From: Gemmataceae bacterium
Lineage (GTDB): Bacteria; Planctomycetota; Planctomycetia; Gemmatales; Gemmataceae
Assembly (NCBI GenBank): GCA_035296965.1
Contig: DATGZX010000367.1
Coordinates: 1 to 58,923 of the forward strand
Reading direction: 5' to 3'
Length of the DNA stretch: 58,923 nucleotides
This document shows, piece by piece, positions 8,912 through 51,450 of the stretch. Both the position numbers and the translations under genes were made by a program. How positions within the stretch are numbered: position 1 is the stretch's first letter; every line of letters begins with the position of its first letter. The notes below the pieces were generated by a model, which saw only the letters and a list, made by a program, of their open reading frames with translations, did no database searches and had not been told where the DNA came from.

Positions 8912-8944
8912 CCAGCCTGGTTCCTCACCAGGCTGGTTTTCATT
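8912..8944 (+). terminator. Intrinsic-terminator-like hairpin: 10-bp perfect GC-rich stem, 5-nt loop, then a T-tract
   Basis: The sequence is ccagcctggt-tcctc-accaggctgg followed by ttttcatttcc. It lies about 390 bp downstream of the Gfo/Idh/MocA stop codon. Confidence 0.5.
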
Positions 8945-8975
8945 TCCTGTCTCTCTCGATATACCTTTCTCCTGA

Positions 8976-9087
8976 GGGCGTGTTGAAAAAGGGGTCAGAC
9001 TCCTTGAGTTCGGCAGAGCCTGGTGTCTCAGAAATGGGCGGAGTGCCTCGATTCTCCAGGGGGTCTGACCCCTTTTTCAACACGCCC
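8976..9087. repeat. Palindromic element copy A: perfect 25-bp terminal inverted repeats (gggcgtgttgaaaaaggggtcagac) flanking about 58 bp
   Basis: The left arm at 8976-9000 and the reverse complement of 9063-9087 are identical. The 17-bp core TGAAAAAGGGGTCAGAC is shared with copy B at about 49155-49266. The core itself contains the mini-palindrome GGGGTCAGACCCC. Confidence 0.65.
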
Positions 9088-9126
9088 TGAGAACCGACCG
9101 CTCATTTTTACCAGGGAGAGCATCGC

Positions 9127-11256: not shown

Positions 11257-11590
11257 GGTGACGGCCTCCTGGGAAAGTGAGGGCCTAACAACCAGGACAC
11301 AACCCGATGCTAAAATGCCACTCGAGGTGGGGCAAGCATTTTCGCGGAACGACAGAAGATGGGGTGGAGGGACATAGGTGGGCGAAGAGAGAACGCACTT
11401 CCTCTGTTCGGATGGTATATAACCGCTCCTGGTCGCGCGCCGTAAGCGGGGATAGGCGCGGCTCCGGCATCATGAATCCGAAATTGGGGCTTGCACGTCT
11501 AATTCAATGGTCCTGTCCCGTTATTCGGATAGGCGCTTAGCCAGGGTCATGGGGACCATCGATCAGCAGCGCGTCGCCTTGGAGACTGTC

Positions 11591-11652
11591 AAACACATAG
11601 GCGGTTACAGGCGTGCTCGCTCCGCGGCACGTCTGTAACCGCCTATGTGTTT
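11591..11652 (-). terminator. Very long hairpin (26-bp stem with one mismatch, 10-nt loop) about 36 bp downstream of the last gene of the MoxR/vWA operon. Candidate terminator or structured RNA.
   Basis: The sequence is aaacacataggcggttacaggcgtgc-tcgctccgcg-gcacgtctgtaaccgcctatgtgttt. Confidence 0.4.
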
Positions 11653-11687
11653 ATGATCGAGCCCGTGATGGGCCACTCCTTGCCTGC

Positions 11688-19680: not shown

Positions 19681-19786
19681 AAGAGCAACGCTCCTTCATC
19701 TATGAGAGGAAGGTCTAAGGCAATCTGATGAGTCAGTTGCTTCACACTAAGGCCTGGCGTAATCTAAATGACCGTGTGCAAATAGG

Positions 19787-19843
19787 CTGATACTAGCCCG
19801 ACGCGTTAGCGAGGTCCTCGCTGACCCTTCGGGCTAGTGTCAG
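19787..19843. promoter_or_regulatory. Nested dyad symmetry in the divergent promoter region between moxR and the giant gene
   Basis: ctgatactagcccga ... tcgggctagtgtcag has 15-bp arms with one mismatch. It encloses a second palindrome, agcgagg-tc-cctcgct. Confidence 0.3.
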
Positions 19844-19950
19844 CGGAATCCTGCACGGTGATGTAGTTGACGTTATCGTCCGGCCCAGCGGAAGTCAAAC
19901 CGGTGCCGGCGGAATCTTTGCGTGCAGGCCTACAAAACGAGGGCCCTCCC

Positions 19951-34442: not shown

Positions 34443-34615
34443 CCGGAAGACGCTTGGGTGCGATGCGTTCGTGGCCTTGGCACTCGGCAGTCTCCGGCAG
34501 TAGCTCGGGACCGAAAGCATGGCACCCAACATGGATTTGCTGTATGATAGTAAATCATGTGCAGTTCCAGCTTAGTCAACGCTCTTACCGACCTGCCATT
34601 GAACTAGGTAGATAA

Positions 34616-47220: not shown

Positions 47221-47402
47221 TACGCCAAAGGCGTTACAGCGCAAAGCCCGGAGTCGCGACAGCGCACTCCGGGAATATCGCCGAGCTCGGTTGCATCTTA
47301 CACCGAAGGTGTTGCAGCGCAGAATTTCCACGAAGCCCCACACCCTCCGGGGTGGCGTCGCGTCCTCCGCAATCCCACATGCGCTGCAACGCCTACGGCG
47401 TA
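47221..47402. repeat. Three copies (two direct, one inverted, about 77-80 bp apart) of a ~23-nt motif made of a short palindrome plus TTRCAGCGCA. Two further palindromes lie between them.
   Basis: tacgccaaaggcgttacagcgca at about 47221. ttacaccgaaggtgttgcagcgca at about 47298. tgcgctgcaacgcctacggcgtag, the inverted copy, at about 47379. Also cccggagtcgcgacagcgcactccggg at about 47246 and caccctccggggtg at about 47341. The region lies inside a roughly 1-kb non-coding gap between convergent genes. Confidence 0.55.
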
Positions 47403-47652: not shown

Positions 47653-49128
47653 CTATTCGATTGCATCCTCGTTCCCGGTGACAGTCCGGGCAATCGTGAT
47701 GCCTAGTTCGCGGAGCTTGGTTCGTAAGCTTCCGCGGGTTATTCCCAAGATCTTGGCCGCTTGCAACTGGTTGCCACCAGTGTGCTGCAGGACGCGCGTA
47801 AGCAGGATCCGTTCCACGCGGCGCAACAGTTCATCATAGAGATTGGCCGTCCCGCTTTGGAGTCGATCCTCGACGAGTTGTGCCAGGGCCGGAAATCCTT
47901 CGCTGCCGTTAAGTTGCTTTCCCTTCGCTAAGAGGATGGCGCTCTCGAGCAGGTGATCTTTATCGCGCAGCGAATCGGGTAGAAAATCTGGCAACAAGGT
48001 CGGGCCCACGGCCTGTAGGAGCGCCTGTTTGAGCGCACTCTGCAATTCGCGGACATTTCCCGGCCAGGAGTATTGCCGCAGGAGGTCGAGCGTTTCCGGC
48101 GCGACAGTCTGTACTTCTTTGAGCATTTCCAGGTTGAAGCGGTGAAGGTAGTGCTGTACCAATGCAATAAGATCGTCGCCGCGCTCGCGCAGCGGCGGTA
48201 GCCGGATCGTGAATACGCTCAATCGGTAGTACAAATCCTGACGGAATTTTCCGCTCGCGACCAGCGGTTCGAGGTCTTGATTCGTGGCTGCCAGCACGCG
48301 CACGTCCGTTTGAATGGTCTCGTTGCCGCCCAGTCTCTCGAACCGCTGTTCTTGCATGAGGCGCAGCATCTTGCTCTGAGTCAACGGCGACATGTCCGCA
48401 ACTTCGTCGAGAAACAAAGTGCCGCCGGAACATTGTTCGAATTTGCCGATGCGCCGGCGGTCCGCCCCGGTGAACGCGCCCTTCTCGTGGCCGAACAGCT
48501 CGCTTTCGAGGAGATGTTCCGGGATCGCGGCGCAATTGATTGCCAGGAATGGTCCGGCCGCACGGCGGCTGTGCTGGTAAATCGCCCGCGCCACCAATTC
48601 TTTACCCGTACCGCTCTCTCCGCCGATCAGGACCGTGACGTCCTGCTCGGCCACGCGGCCGATGTCCTTGTAGACCTTTTGCATCGCTGGGCAGCGGCCG
48701 ATGATCGCATCAGCGCGATCGTCCACCACCTCGGCCTCCGCGACGACCGCGGGAACGTGCATTTTCCTGCTAATGGCCAAAGCCTGGTCGACCACCTGCC
48801 TGAGCTGCGCTAATTCCAAAGGTTTCAGAAGGTATTCATAGGCCCCTAACTTGGTTGCCTCGATGGCCGTATCCGTCGTGCTCTTGCCGGTAATGAAAAT
48901 CACTGGGCTGCGGGCATCTAATTCGTGAAGCTTGCGCAACACTTCCAGTCCATTCATGTCCGGCAGATGGATATCCAGGATAATGACATCGGGGTGGTAT
49001 TCTTGAGCAAGGGCCAATCCCTCGGTCGCGGTTTCTGCTGTACGAATCTGCAGAGCGCTATCGCGGTAGGCCCGCCGGAAGGCCGCCAGAATCGACGGCT
49101 CATCATCAACGACCAAAAGTGTCGGCAT
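47653..49128 (-). CDS. Sigma-54-dependent two-component response regulator (NtrC family)
   Basis: A REC domain (LVVDDEPSI...DVIILDIHLPDMNGLEV), an AAA+ sigma-54 activator domain (GESGTGKELVARAIY..., the GAFTGA motif, Walker B) and a C-terminal Fis-type HTH. Confidence 0.9.
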   Translation of the reverse strand: MPTLLVVDDEPSILAAFRRAYRDSALQIRTAETATEGLALAQEYHPDVIILDIHLPDMNGLEVLRKLHELDARSPVIFITGKSTTDTAIEATKLGAYEYLLKPLELAQLRQVVDQALAISRKMHVPAVVAEAEVVDDRADAIIGRCPAMQKVYKDIGRVAEQDVTVLIGGESGTGKELVARAIYQHSRRAAGPFLAINCAAIPEHLLESELFGHEKGAFTGADRRRIGKFEQCSGGTLFLDEVADMSPLTQSKMLRLMQEQRFERLGGNETIQTDVRVLAATNQDLEPLVASGKFRQDLYYRLSVFTIRLPPLRERGDDLIALVQHYLHRFNLEMLKEVQTVAPETLDLLRQYSWPGNVRELQSALKQALLQAVGPTLLPDFLPDSLRDKDHLLESAILLAKGKQLNGSEGFPALAQLVEDRLQSGTANLYDELLRRVERILLTRVLQHTGGNQLQAAKILGITRGSLRTKLRELGITIARTVTGNEDAIE

Positions 49129-49154
49129 AGCGTATTCTCGCCTTACTTCCTCAC

Positions 49155-49266
49155 GAGCCTGCTGAAAAAGGGGTCTGACCCCCTACGAAGCTTCACTGAT
49201 TTCCTACCATCTCGGGGGTCTATCGCACTTCGTGGAAGGGGTCTGACCCCTTTTTCAGCAGGCTCC
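49155..49266. repeat. Palindromic element copy B, filling the 138-bp intergenic space between the sensor kinase stop and the response-regulator start
   Basis: gagcctgctgaaaaaggggtctgaccccc ... aaggggtctgacccctttttcagcaggctc: terminal inverted repeats of 28 nt with one mismatch. The inner sequence extends the stem (ctacgaag...cttcgtgg). It shares the core TGAAAAAGGGGTC[A/T]GAC with copy A at 8976-9087. Confidence 0.65.
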
Positions 49267-50922
49267 TCACACGGGCAGGGTAAACGTGAACACGGCCCCG
49301 CCCGCCGGCAGATTATCGCCTCGGATCGTGCCGCCGTGCGCTTCGATCAGCCGTTTGCAAATACTTAGCCCTAGTCCAACGCCTGTCTCCTTGCTGCTGA
49401 CAAACGGCTCGAACAACCGCTCGCGAATCCGCGGTGCAATACCAGAGCCAGTGTCGCACACGCGGATCTCAAGGGAGCGCTCCGGAGATTTGGCAGGCGT
49501 TCCATTGCCCGATGGAACGAACTCGCGGACATTCACTTGAATCGTGCCGCCGCGCGGCAGCGCATCGAGCGCGTTGAGGAGCAGATTCACCATCACCTGA
49601 TGAATCTGCTCAGGGTCAATCAAGACGGGGATTGGCTCGGCGGGCAAATCGGCGGCGAGCGTAACCCTCTGCCGGCGCGCTCGCCCCTCGACTAGCGACA
49701 GTGAGCGGCGCAAAACCGCAAGCAAGTCTGTCTGGCGACGTTCGGAACGCGGCGGCTTGGCGAAATCGAGGAACATCTGGATGCACTGTTCCATGCGCCG
49801 GACCTCGTGCTCGATGATACGCAAGTCTTCTTGCGGCAGGCCCACAGAGGCGCCCCCTTCCAGCCCGGTTTGCACCAGCATTTTGACGGAGGTGAGCGGA
49901 TTGCGCAGCTCGTGCGCCACACCTGCAGCCACTTGGCCGACCGCGGCCAATTGTTCCGAGCGGAGCACCTCGCGTTCCCGCTGCTGGAGTTGGTCGACGA
50001 TACGTTCGATCTCGGCCAGGACTCCTTGCAACTGGCGATGCAAATCCGGCAGGTCCCCATCCTCTTGCAGAGTGACGGAGCCGAGTTCTCGGTTGAGCCG
50101 GCCGGCTGCATCGCGGATGCCCACACTCAACTGATAAATGGAATGGCGCAAGCTCTGCGCGACGGCATATCCCAACAACAACCCGCTTAGTGGCGCACCT
50201 AGGCCGACGGCCAGCAGGCCCCACTTCAGTTGTTTGACGATCCTCTCGTTCTCGTTGTCGGATCTCTCGATCTGCCCAGCGTTATAAGCCCTTAGCTCCG
50301 TGCATGGGACGAGGACATCCTCCTTAACCTGGCGGGCAAGATCCTTGTCAAAATTTGCCTGGTCGACTTCAGTGAGTTCTTTACCGCGCTCCGCCCACCG
50401 ATCCAGGTATCTTTGGAATCCCGCTTCGATCTTGTTGACGTAGTCCTTTTCTGGATCATGATTAGCTAGGCGATTGGCATCTGCCAAGAATCCACGAGCT
50501 TCATCGTTCCGACCATTGATATCCTGCACCAGTCGATTGGGATGGTCGCGATTCGGCTGTTCAAGCTTGCTGATAATTTCTTTGGCTACCTTTTCGAGAC
50601 TGTGTGCCGCACTGGTGCTCTGCACATTCTCAGTCAGTTCCTCGGAGACCTTGACGTGCAGGCGGTTGAGGTACAAGACGGCCAGAATACAGACCCCTAC
50701 CAATGCCAAGCTGACGAGTACGGTCGGGGCCAACAACTTCAGCGCTAAGGGTCTGCTGAGCACGAGCTGCCTCGGGAGAGTGCGGCAAGGAACGGGAAAT
50801 TTGCTTCCTTCATTATAGGCGAGCCGGAGTGTGATTGGGGCCAAACGAGGGAAGGTTGAATCACCCGCGATATGGGAGCACGATTCGCTCTTGCCATCAG
50901 CGCAAAGAAAAACCCGCGCCAA
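49267..50922 (-). CDS. Sensor histidine kinase (TM, HAMP-like, HisKA, HATPase_c)
   Basis: TM helix near the N-terminus and a second TM helix (LLAVGLGAPLSGLLLGYAVA). The H-box VAHELRNPL and the N/G boxes in the C-terminus are present. The exact start is uncertain; the track ORF may begin too far upstream. Confidence 0.8.
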   Translation of the reverse strand: MARVFLCADGKSESCSHIAGDSTFPRLAPITLRLAYNEGSKFPVPCRTLPRQLVLSRPLALKLLAPTVLVSLALVGVCILAVLYLNRLHVKVSEELTENVQSTSAAHSLEKVAKEIISKLEQPNRDHPNRLVQDINGRNDEARGFLADANRLANHDPEKDYVNKIEAGFQRYLDRWAERGKELTEVDQANFDKDLARQVKEDVLVPCTELRAYNAGQIERSDNENERIVKQLKWGLLAVGLGAPLSGLLLGYAVAQSLRHSIYQLSVGIRDAAGRLNRELGSVTLQEDGDLPDLHRQLQGVLAEIERIVDQLQQREREVLRSEQLAAVGQVAAGVAHELRNPLTSVKMLVQTGLEGGASVGLPQEDLRIIEHEVRRMEQCIQMFLDFAKPPRSERRQTDLLAVLRRSLSLVEGRARRQRVTLAADLPAEPIPVLIDPEQIHQVMVNLLLNALDALPRGGTIQVNVREFVPSGNGTPAKSPERSLEIRVCDTGSGIAPRIRERLFEPFVSSKETGVGLGLSICKRLIEAHGGTIRGDNLPAGGAVFTFTLPV

Positions 50923-51450
50923 TGGCGCGGGTGGGAATGGCCGGGCTCCTGTTCCGGTGAGCCCGACCAGCTATTTTCGAGCAAAGGGGGACACCCGGGC
51001 CTGGGTCGGAAGGCCCGGGTGAGCCAAAGGCCGGGGGCAAACAAGCAGGAATGACGCGACTTCCTGCTTCTTCACCCCCCTTGCCTCTTTTTGACCAAAC
51101 ATCTGCGATCTAGGCTTCATAACCCTTTGTGGTCCCTGTTCCCGGATCCTCGACTGACCCCCGTTCCATTGGTCGCCAGCCTTCGAATCCGGGTTTGGAT
51201 GCTCGCCTGACTAATCGCGAGGGCCTCTTCAGTTCCAGCCCCATCTTCTCTCAAATTCTCGCTTTTCGCCCCGCGAGCGATTGTTTATGAGAGCAAGAGC
51301 CATGCCAAACAATCGCGCTTTCTCCTTATCTTCTTCAAAGCGTTATCCTGAAAAGGTTTGTGTATCAAGCAACTTTCTCGAGATCGCCCGAGCACTAAGA
51401 AGCGTATGCAATTCCTACAAGAATCGTTCCCAGCCGCGTACTTTTTTGCA

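Follow-up and report, generated by a model that had tools for sequence, protein, structure and literature searches.

Miniature inverted-repeat transposable elements (MITEs) are understood here as sequences of about 70–300 bp that have no coding capacity and end in terminal inverted repeats of about 15–30 bp (PMC3733652). An exclusive 3-bp TNA target duplication is the hallmark of the IS1031 group within the IS5 family of insertion sequences (ISs) (PMC12016507), and YTAR with a 4-bp duplication is an IS5 hallmark (PMC5009759). Repetitive extragenic palindromic (REP) sequences and REPINs, in which a REP doublet forms a hairpin, leave no target duplication, carry a GTAG or CGTC tag and have been proposed to act in termination and mRNA stabilisation; the same overview of MITEs and REPs covers hairpins as modulators of expression (PMC3733652). 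The hairpins that Correia elements form in mRNA are bound or cut by RNase III and alter the expression of neighbouring genes (PMC2649163). Here we describe a palindromic element, copy B, in a stretch of 58,923 nt from a Gemmataceae bacterium (contig DATGZX010000367.1 of assembly GCA_035296965.1; this whole stretch is called the window). Copy B lies between the genes for a sensor histidine kinase and an NtrC-type sigma-54 activator response regulator, and a second palindrome, copy A, is found elsewhere in the window. Copy B is 111 nt long, does not code for protein and derives from an insertion sequence of the DDE type, most likely one of the IS5 family. A MITE insertion of likely IS5-family ancestry, accompanied by a predicted partial change in the expression of the regulator, is very probably the best explanation of the locus as a whole.

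Copy B is a mobile-element insertion and not a native hairpin of the operon. Three related loci (L110, L111 and L112) encode a regulator (P0002) that is 97% identical to that of the window and have the gene order MOFRL-kinase-regulator-ParA-GBBH in common with it, with a kinase-regulator spacer of only 22 nt (GGAAGTAAGTCGAGAATTAGCT in L110). The window is longer than these loci by exactly 116 nt, of which 111 nt are the element and 5 nt a direct repeat of GTGAG. In the alignment the relative reads …CCCGCGTGAGG followed directly by AAGTAAGTCGAGAATTAGCTATG, and the minus strand of the window reads …CCCGTGTGAG, then the element from GAGCCTGC to GCAGGCTC, then GTGAGGAAGTAAGGCGAGAATACGCTATG. When the empty site was reconstructed and compared by BLAST, it aligned to L110-L112 without gaps over 115 nt. 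The TGA of the kinase gene is inside the duplicated pentamer, and thus the end of the kinase is unchanged (…FTFTLPV and stop in the window versus …FTFTLPA and stop in the relative), while the regulator retains its original 22-nt upstream sequence. A native attenuator or terminator hairpin, vertically inherited with the two-component operon, would agree with the strong structure of the spacer and with the structured spacers of several orthologues. However, the closest relative precisely lacks the element, the target is duplicated, the same 111-nt sequence occurs at at least 44 unrelated sites, and the hairpins of the orthologues have no sequence in common with it, which makes such an origin highly improbable. 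The earlier note on this DNA had proposed to compare orthologous kinase-regulator loci, with a structured spacer of similar size in all of them, unrelated to copy A, as the sign of an ordinary conserved intergenic hairpin. Most of these spacers are indeed structured and unlike copy A; but the closest relative is bare and the element is dispersed and mobile, so that copy B is not such a hairpin.

The flanking DNA of the window and of the relative is about 87–92% identical at the nucleotide level, which places the insertion after a species-level split and means that it is not very recent. Copy B itself is 93% identical to the consensus of 44 distinct copies of its subfamily. The suggestion that the palindrome might mark a recent insertion is therefore borne out for the insertion, by the 116-nt empty-site difference, and for its recency only in a relative sense. 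The window comes from a JGI peat metagenome, and the source names of homologues point to Planctomycetota, close to Gemmataceae. An identical regulator is encoded on 15 metagenome contigs, and the element is present in every place shown (5 of 15). We give practically no credence to the idea that the palindrome was produced by mis-joined reads during assembly, as the identical element with its flanks is found in independent assemblies of different samples and dozens of further copies each have flanks of their own.

The minus-strand gap between the kinase stop and the regulator start is 138 nt (49129-49266; Table 1). The earlier note had described there, between the kinase and NtrC-like regulator genes of a sigma-54 system, a palindrome with 28-nt inverted termini and an imperfect inner stem. 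The Pfam domains (for the regulator Response_reg, Sigma54_activat, AAA_lid_14 and HTH_8) and the length of the spacer agree with this description; the arms are 28 nt long, complementary at 27 of 28 positions (96%) and separated by 55 nt, and the imperfect inner stem is seen in the predicted folds. The palindrome had been thought to occupy the whole spacer. It does lie within the spacer, of which it takes up 111 of 138 nt (49155-49265), flanked by CTCAC repeats. No chance match to the arm was found in 100 shuffles. As RNA of the transcribed strand, the spacer folds at -72.6 kcal/mol (z -8.25), a stability reached by 0 of 200 shuffles, and the values for the 111-nt element alone are -67.6 kcal/mol as the minus strand and -72.3 kcal/mol as the plus strand, with z from -9 to -10. 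Copy B appears on the transcribed (minus) strand as the reverse complement of the consensus written for its family. The predicted order in the kinase-regulator mRNA is …UGA-G, the element GAGCCUGCUG-AAAAA-GGGGUCAGACCCC…GGGGUCAGACCCC-UUUUU-CAGCAGGCUC, then GUGAGGAAG…AUG. Searching Rfam at gathering score gave no match in the whole window, and a permissive Rfam search of the spacer returned only generic-hairpin matches to microRNA models, far below threshold. Likewise, no match was found in annotated plasmids by a distant-mode search, and nothing relevant in a full-text search of the literature with the core sequence.

Copy B belongs to a dispersed family. A scan of JGI metagenome contigs for GRGCSTGYTGAAAAAGGGGTCWGAC yielded at least 119 stretches, nearly all from related peat-metagenome samples. 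After removal of same-locus matches, at least 74 distinct insertion sites remained among the matches listed, 44 of type B (the subfamily of copy B) and 30 of type A (that of copy A). Type B has the tip GAGCCTGC, a length of 111 nt and a 5-bp duplication (at least 44 distinct sites). In type A the tip is GAGCGTGT, the length 112 nt and the duplication a 3-bp TNA (at least 30 distinct sites; copy A of the window is 95% identical to the consensus). A third subfamily, type C, was found in the Planctomycetota metagenome-assembled genome (MAG) CAWKFA01 by a core-only scan with one genome per species; it has the tip CAGCCCGT, is about 99 nt long and duplicates 4 bp, NTAR. The tips of types A, B and C align without gaps, in the same register and immediately preceding the core, and the four arms of copies A and B have the core TGAAAAAGGGGTCWGACCCC in common. 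The 5-bp duplications of type B are perfect at 13 of 44 sites and have one mismatch at another 16 (29/44 in total), against 0 and 0 in an offset-flank control, and duplications of other lengths are almost absent from the type-B flanks; the symmetrised target is about CYWRG. For type A, 12 of 30 duplications are perfect and 10 have one mismatch, and they are always TNA (TCA, TGA and TTA only). The corresponding numbers for the NTAR duplications of type C, mostly CTAG or CTAA, are 16 and 8 of 25. The 28-nt inverted arms are conserved across the 44 type-B copies. Copies A and B had been regarded as two copies of one element: their termini of about 30 nt are indeed common to both, whereas their interiors, like those of types A and B in general, are mutually unrelated, and they represent different subfamilies with different duplications. 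Copy A is flanked by TGA on both sides (8973-8975 and 9088-9090). It is present in a 99% relative and absent from an 85% relative whose upstream sequence has diverged, and there is no clean empty site among these two. The family is abundant in a peat-dwelling Gemmataceae-like planctomycete lineage. We regard it as a new family of MITEs, probably with an IS5-type ancestor, that belongs to uncultured Gemmataceae-like planctomycetes.

Some unusual family members deserve mention. The chimeric copy L137:8902-9012 combines the tip GAGCGTGC with a type-B interior and a 5-bp duplication, TGAGG, and a copy in L158 has the tip GAGCCTGT and TNA-like flanks. Together these two suggest a link between tip position 8 and the length of the duplication, with C for 5 bp and T for 3 bp. 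Deletion derivatives were seen at L040:3288-3338, L091:5739-5790, L102:4701-4750, L173:712-796, L208:4427-4490 and L134:984-1072. Type-A and type-B deletion copies of 64–93 nt are devoid of interior sequence, and collapsed type-C copies are perfect palindromes of about 51 nt in which both cores are fused. Slippage from one 13-nt core to the other, the two being nearly identical, could account for these derivatives. Four type-B copies (L126:5436, L214:2635, L184:1392 and L181:7017) have flanks that are repeated elsewhere at 80–93% identity, e.g. TCCCTTRAGTACAAGGGAGAGGGG, and these copies appear to be nested within another repeat family.

In size, inverted termini, fixed-length duplication, dispersal and the presence of an empty site, copy B has the general features of a MITE. 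The tips GAGCCTGC and GAGCGTGT agree with the terminal repeat of ISLrh, GAACCTGT… (PMC12016507), at 6 of 8 positions, a resemblance that is suggestive only. Taken together, the TNA/3-bp and NTAR/4-bp duplications and the ISLrh-like tips point to an IS5-family ancestry. The exclusive 3-bp TNA duplication of the IS1031 group is found in the copy A subfamily and not in the copy B subfamily. As to the enzyme, 161 of 176 arm instances have a partner arm no more than 130 nt away, and the few without one are at contig ends or belong to MITE copies interrupted by an IS. ISAs1-like and IS66-like genes in L143 and an IS4-like gene in L157 were considered as partners and rejected, for they have their own ends and lie inside disrupted MITE copies. 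The ISAs1-like IS (L143:2243-3519, 380-aa transposase) and the IS4-like IS (L157:64-1721, 464-aa transposase, ends CCGAATGGCACTTCCC) both entered a MITE copy exactly at the GGGGTCTGAC core. Insertions may favour the core palindrome, as they favour REPs.

This entry of other insertion sequences into the core is one of two features that recall a REPIN, i.e. a REP doublet hairpin mobilised by a REP-associated tyrosine transposase (RAYT). The other is the architecture: the short palindrome GGGGTCWGACCCC occurs twice in inverted orientation, with about 55 nt in between, and the whole forms one long hairpin. Nevertheless, we consider a REPIN very unlikely here. Target-site duplications are clear and of fixed length in each subfamily, and Y1 single-strand transposition makes none. 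The ends GAGCC…GGCTC carry neither a GTAG nor a CGTC tag (tags as in PMC3733652), and no RAYT gene was seen, though no systematic search for one was made. Two other classes of element were also considered and rejected. A Tn3-derived inverted-repeat miniature element (TIME) came into question for the 5-bp duplication and the motif GGGGTCTGAC, which would correspond to the outermost 10 nt of the terminal repeat of Tn3 (Tn3/pBR322 sequence). In Tn3-type terminal repeats, which are about 38 bp long, GGGG is at the outermost tip; in copy B the motif is internal (positions 16–25), behind the GAGCCTGC tip. Tn3-family enzymes are not known to make 3- or 4-bp duplications such as the sister subfamilies have. 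A Correia element was rejected because of the 5-bp duplication, rather than TA, and the planctomycete, rather than Neisseria, host. Correia elements duplicate TA, can create promoters and carry an IHF site, features of which copy B showed none, and copy B presumably has no sequence relationship with them.

To place the family in its gene contexts, we used a codon-usage gene caller trained on the fetched loci, which recovers the Pfam-supported genes of the window. Intergenic sites amount to 69 of the at least 74. Type-B copies lie between co-directional genes in 24 cases, between divergent genes in 9 and between convergent genes in 4; for type A the numbers are 14, 3 and 1. Convergent placement thus shows no excess in types A and B (5/55) versus 8 of 21 in type C, and is inconsistent between subfamilies. 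A position within 2 nt of a stop codon was found for 11 of the 55 classifiable sites, when 2.9 would be expected if copies were spread evenly over that intergenic space. It is typical for the family to land on a stop codon and restore it by the duplication, as copy B has done. In co-directional contexts, the orientation of type B relative to transcription is biased 19:6 (p 0.015, uncorrected), and copy B has the majority orientation.

How the insertion may act on the operon can be modelled as follows. A 5-bp staggered cut at GTGAG, including the TGA of the kinase gene, was made in the 22-nt spacer, probably by a transposase supplied in trans. Repair duplicated the 5 bp, so that both the stop codon and the upstream sequence of the regulator survived. 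The kinase-regulator mRNA would thereby have gained a very stable hairpin, inferred to be of about -68 kcal/mol. With its inner stem bracketed by A5 and U5, this hairpin would resemble a bidirectional intrinsic terminator: the long G+C-rich stem would be complete as RNA polymerase reaches U5, and because of the A5 run the same geometry would apply in either orientation. The inner stem GGGGUCAGACCCC… is followed by UUUUU, yet these U pair with A5 in the full hairpin. The near-perfect duplex of about 28–36 bp would also be a typical RNase III substrate, for which the Correia elements of Neisseria are the established precedent (PMC2649163), and the coupling distance would have grown from 22 nt to 138 nt, with loss of tight coupling. 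On this model, the most likely outcome is a partial, not complete, change of regulator versus kinase expression via termination and/or processing. Silencing of the regulator would not be expected, and partial uncoupling is our best estimate. The expectation in the earlier note that such a hairpin would attenuate the regulator or uncouple it from the kinase is reasonable, if probably overstated. The promoter scan found no promoter-like site at the element, and no outward promoter was seen in its termini. Relative to shuffles, the window is not enriched in terminator-like sites.

Several observations weigh against this explanation of ancestry and effect. The 5-bp duplication of type B is such that no named IS5 subgroup can be assigned. 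Neither unpaired arms nor arm pairs 400–4000 bp apart revealed an autonomous element with such termini in the 1.75 Mb of DNA that was fetched. The U tract after the inner stem has a length of only five, and the site of copy B is not called by a consensus terminator scan. The element-bearing allele is the sole allele seen in the lineage of the window, which speaks against a strong polar effect. Like copy B, 12 of the 55 classifiable members are located in tight co-directional pairs (at most 60 nt on each side); the downstream gene of such a pair has no room for a promoter of its own, which likewise argues against strong polarity. From these 12 members and the sole filled allele, it follows that a polar effect is tolerated or weak. 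Finally, the gene caller uses longest-ORF (open reading frame) starts, and distances to start codons are therefore approximate.

The orthologous junctions raise a further question (Table 1). When a repeat was counted only if its arms had 18 nt or more with no more than 2 mismatches and its loop did not exceed 130 nt, one was present at 6 of 7 junctions, compared with 11 of 47 (about 23%) of the remaining intergenic regions in these sequences (p about 0.001 in a post hoc binomial test). The junction repeats have no sequence in common with each other or with the MITE and start 0–28 nt past the kinase stop. Two further orthologous loci, taken without their DNA, have spacers of 77 and 429 nt. This could mean that an intercistronic stem-loop after the kinase is selected, e.g. 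to set kinase:regulator stoichiometry via mRNA stability or processing, and that the MITE is a functional replacement. The presence of different strong inverted repeats at six of seven orthologous junctions favours this idea, as does the orientation bias of type B with the window copy in the majority. However, the test was post hoc and comprises seven lineages only, the closest relative manages with a spacer of 22 nt and no repeat, the repeat of L114 has little thermodynamic stability as RNA (z -1.7), and these genomes are rich in palindromes, which occur in about a quarter of intergenic regions. Moreover, stop-proximal landing is general in the family, so that a safe harbour accounts for much of the junction pattern. 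The alternative reading is thus a tolerated landing pad beside the stop codon, and we regard selection of the stem-loop as rather unlikely, although it is compatible with the element being a MITE. The stronger proposal, that unrelated mobile palindromes (the MITE and at least five other kinds) were repeatedly recruited as interchangeable hairpins tuning the kinase:regulator ratio, appears unlikely to us. If true, the lineage of the window would have regained by transposition a hairpin that was missing in the ancestor common with its closest relative.

Table 1. Positions of copy B and its parts, of the adjoining genes, of copy A and of the orthologous kinase-regulator junctions (positions without a locus prefix refer to the window; TSD, target-site duplication)
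Feature	Position	Strand	Details
Type-B MITE (copy B palindrome)	49155..49265	none	111 nt, non-coding
Left terminal inverted repeat	49155..49182	plus	GAGCCTGCTGAAAAAGGGGTCTGACCCC, i.e. 8-nt tip and conserved core TGAAAAAGGGGTCWGACCCC
Right terminal inverted repeat	49238..49265	minus	one mismatch to left arm; mRNA reads GGGGUCAGACCCC-UUUUU-CAGCAGGCUC
TSD copy 1	49150..49154		regulator side; CTCAC on plus strand, GTGAG on minus strand; from empty-site alignment
TSD copy 2	49266..49270		kinase side; holds kinase stop TGA (minus, 49269-49267)
Sensor histidine kinase gene	49267..50763	minus	HisKA and HATPase_c (Pfam); public gene call of 498 aa
NtrC-type sigma-54 activator response regulator gene	47653..49128	minus	491 aa, start at 49128
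Rest of original 22-nt intercistronic spacer	49129..49149	minus	directly upstream of regulator start; with TSD copy reads GGAAGTAAGGCGAGAATACGCT
Copy A, type-A MITE	8976..9087	none	112 nt, tip G(G/A)GCGTGT, 39 nt upstream of RdgC-like gene
Junction, L110 (regulator 97%)			spacer 22 nt; no structure
Junction, window (regulator 100%)			spacer 138 nt; type-B MITE
Junction, L113 (regulator 83%)	L113:2957-3013		spacer 123 nt; hairpin with 24-nt arms; true start MPTLLVVDDE at L113:3076
Junction, L114 (regulator 79%)	L114:2872-2969		spacer 157 nt, A+T-rich; perfect 18-nt arms
Junction, L239 / L238 (regulator 78%)	L239:2359-2422		spacer 154 nt; 27-nt arms
Junction, L237 (regulator 73%)	L237:2398-2462		spacer 120 nt; 30-nt arms, -78.5 kcal/mol, z -12
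Junction, L242 (regulator 72%)	L242:2381-2553		spacer about 170 nt; 30-nt arms

With regard to the surrounding genes, the longest ORF of the kinase comprises 551 codons, reaching 50922 and ending at 49267 (minus strand). The window has two good terminator-like hairpins with T tracts, at 50912-50932 (minus strand), just upstream of the kinase gene, and at 8912-8936 (plus strand), about 40 nt upstream of copy A. The former suggests that the kinase and the regulator form a separate transcription unit. Immediately 3' of the stop codon of the regulator, the window has an extra block of about 536 nt compared with L110 (47108-47645). This block contains at least three copies of a hairpin motif of about 30 nt (TACGCCnnnGGCGTA beside …CAGCGC) and a strong inverted repeat at 47303-47398.

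A 27-nt module, TGAAAAAGGGGTCWGACCCCTTTTTCA, is kept in the three MITE subfamilies, which differ in tip and in cut spacing. It also occurs in multiple copies in genomes of distant phyla (L008, L009, L012, L014, L026, L031, L034, L045, L055, L078 and others). There the flanking extension of the palindrome differs, being …AATG-core-CATT… in Eggerthellaceae UBA3686 and …TTGG-core-CCAA… in Clostridia. The module was seen as well in an Alphaproteobacteria MAG and, with GGGTTAACCC, in MAG CALJYC01. These cross-phylum copies are either related elements or convergent terminators. To judge from this distribution, TGAAAAAGGGGTCWGACCCCTTTTTCA might conceivably serve as a portable unit with a function of its own, such as a terminator or a site for protein binding, and not only as a transposase site. 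Another palindromic repeat, …CGAAGCG(Y)(W)AGCGAGG…, is present in the window (19786-19844), at L237:4321-4394, at the L239 junction (L239:2359-2422) and at L242:5348-5413. The likeness was judged by eye, and no additional copies came up when the L239 arm was searched with 3 mismatches allowed; the repeat may represent a further dispersed family of Gemmataceae-like genomes. Strong inverted repeats are found in 7 of the 27 intergenic regions of the window, among them those at 593-645, 11589-11654 and 34454-34529, and in none of the called genes. The 78% relative has a further palindrome with perfect 22-nt arms at L239:4170-4256 (ATACGAAAAGGGGACAGGACTC and GAGTCCTGTCCCCTTTTCGTAT) and a motif in the style of the MITE core, GAAAAGGGGNCAG….

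Taken alone, copy B is a MITE insertion of a routine kind, from a phylum whose repeats have received little description. It does offer a clean natural pair of filled and empty sites in a two-component operon, both lineages being present in related peat metagenome samples. Three sister subfamilies with a common core of about 20 nt and duplications of 3, 4 and 5 bp constitute a system for the question of cut spacing in IS5-type transposition. Palindromes recur at the kinase-regulator junction, and if more loci bear this out, it would suggest that structure between the cistrons is under selection. In annotation, numerous spurious small ORFs and unusual spacers of Gemmataceae-like assemblies are explained by the family.

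Compared with known systems, copy B resembles the Correia elements (CREE/NEMIS) in several respects: these are about 100–155 bp long, have inverted termini of about 26 bp, occur in hundreds of copies, are inserted beside and between genes, are co-transcribed and form hairpins in mRNA (PMC2649163). They differ in being from another phylum, and copy B has no promoter-like site. With REPs, bacterial interspersed mosaic elements (BIMEs) and REPINs the family has in common that its members are dispersed extragenic palindromes with a doublet architecture that serve as targets of insertion sequences; among REPs there are also intercistronic ones that set differential expression within operons. Unlike REPs and REPINs, the element has fixed-length duplications and no tag. 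The 5-bp target duplication is the feature held in common with Tn3-derived TIMEs. In contrast to IS5-derived MITEs, the copy B subfamily duplicates 5 bp at a target of about CYWRG, and the conserved terminus is unusually long (about 28 nt), with an internal palindrome and A5/T5. The likeness to IS5-derived MITEs lies in the IS1031-group TNA/3-bp and IS5-group YTAR/4-bp duplications given by types A and C, in the tip GAGC(C/G)TG, which resembles GAACCTGT of ISLrh, and in the palindromic target, the intergenic insertions and the absence of coding capacity.

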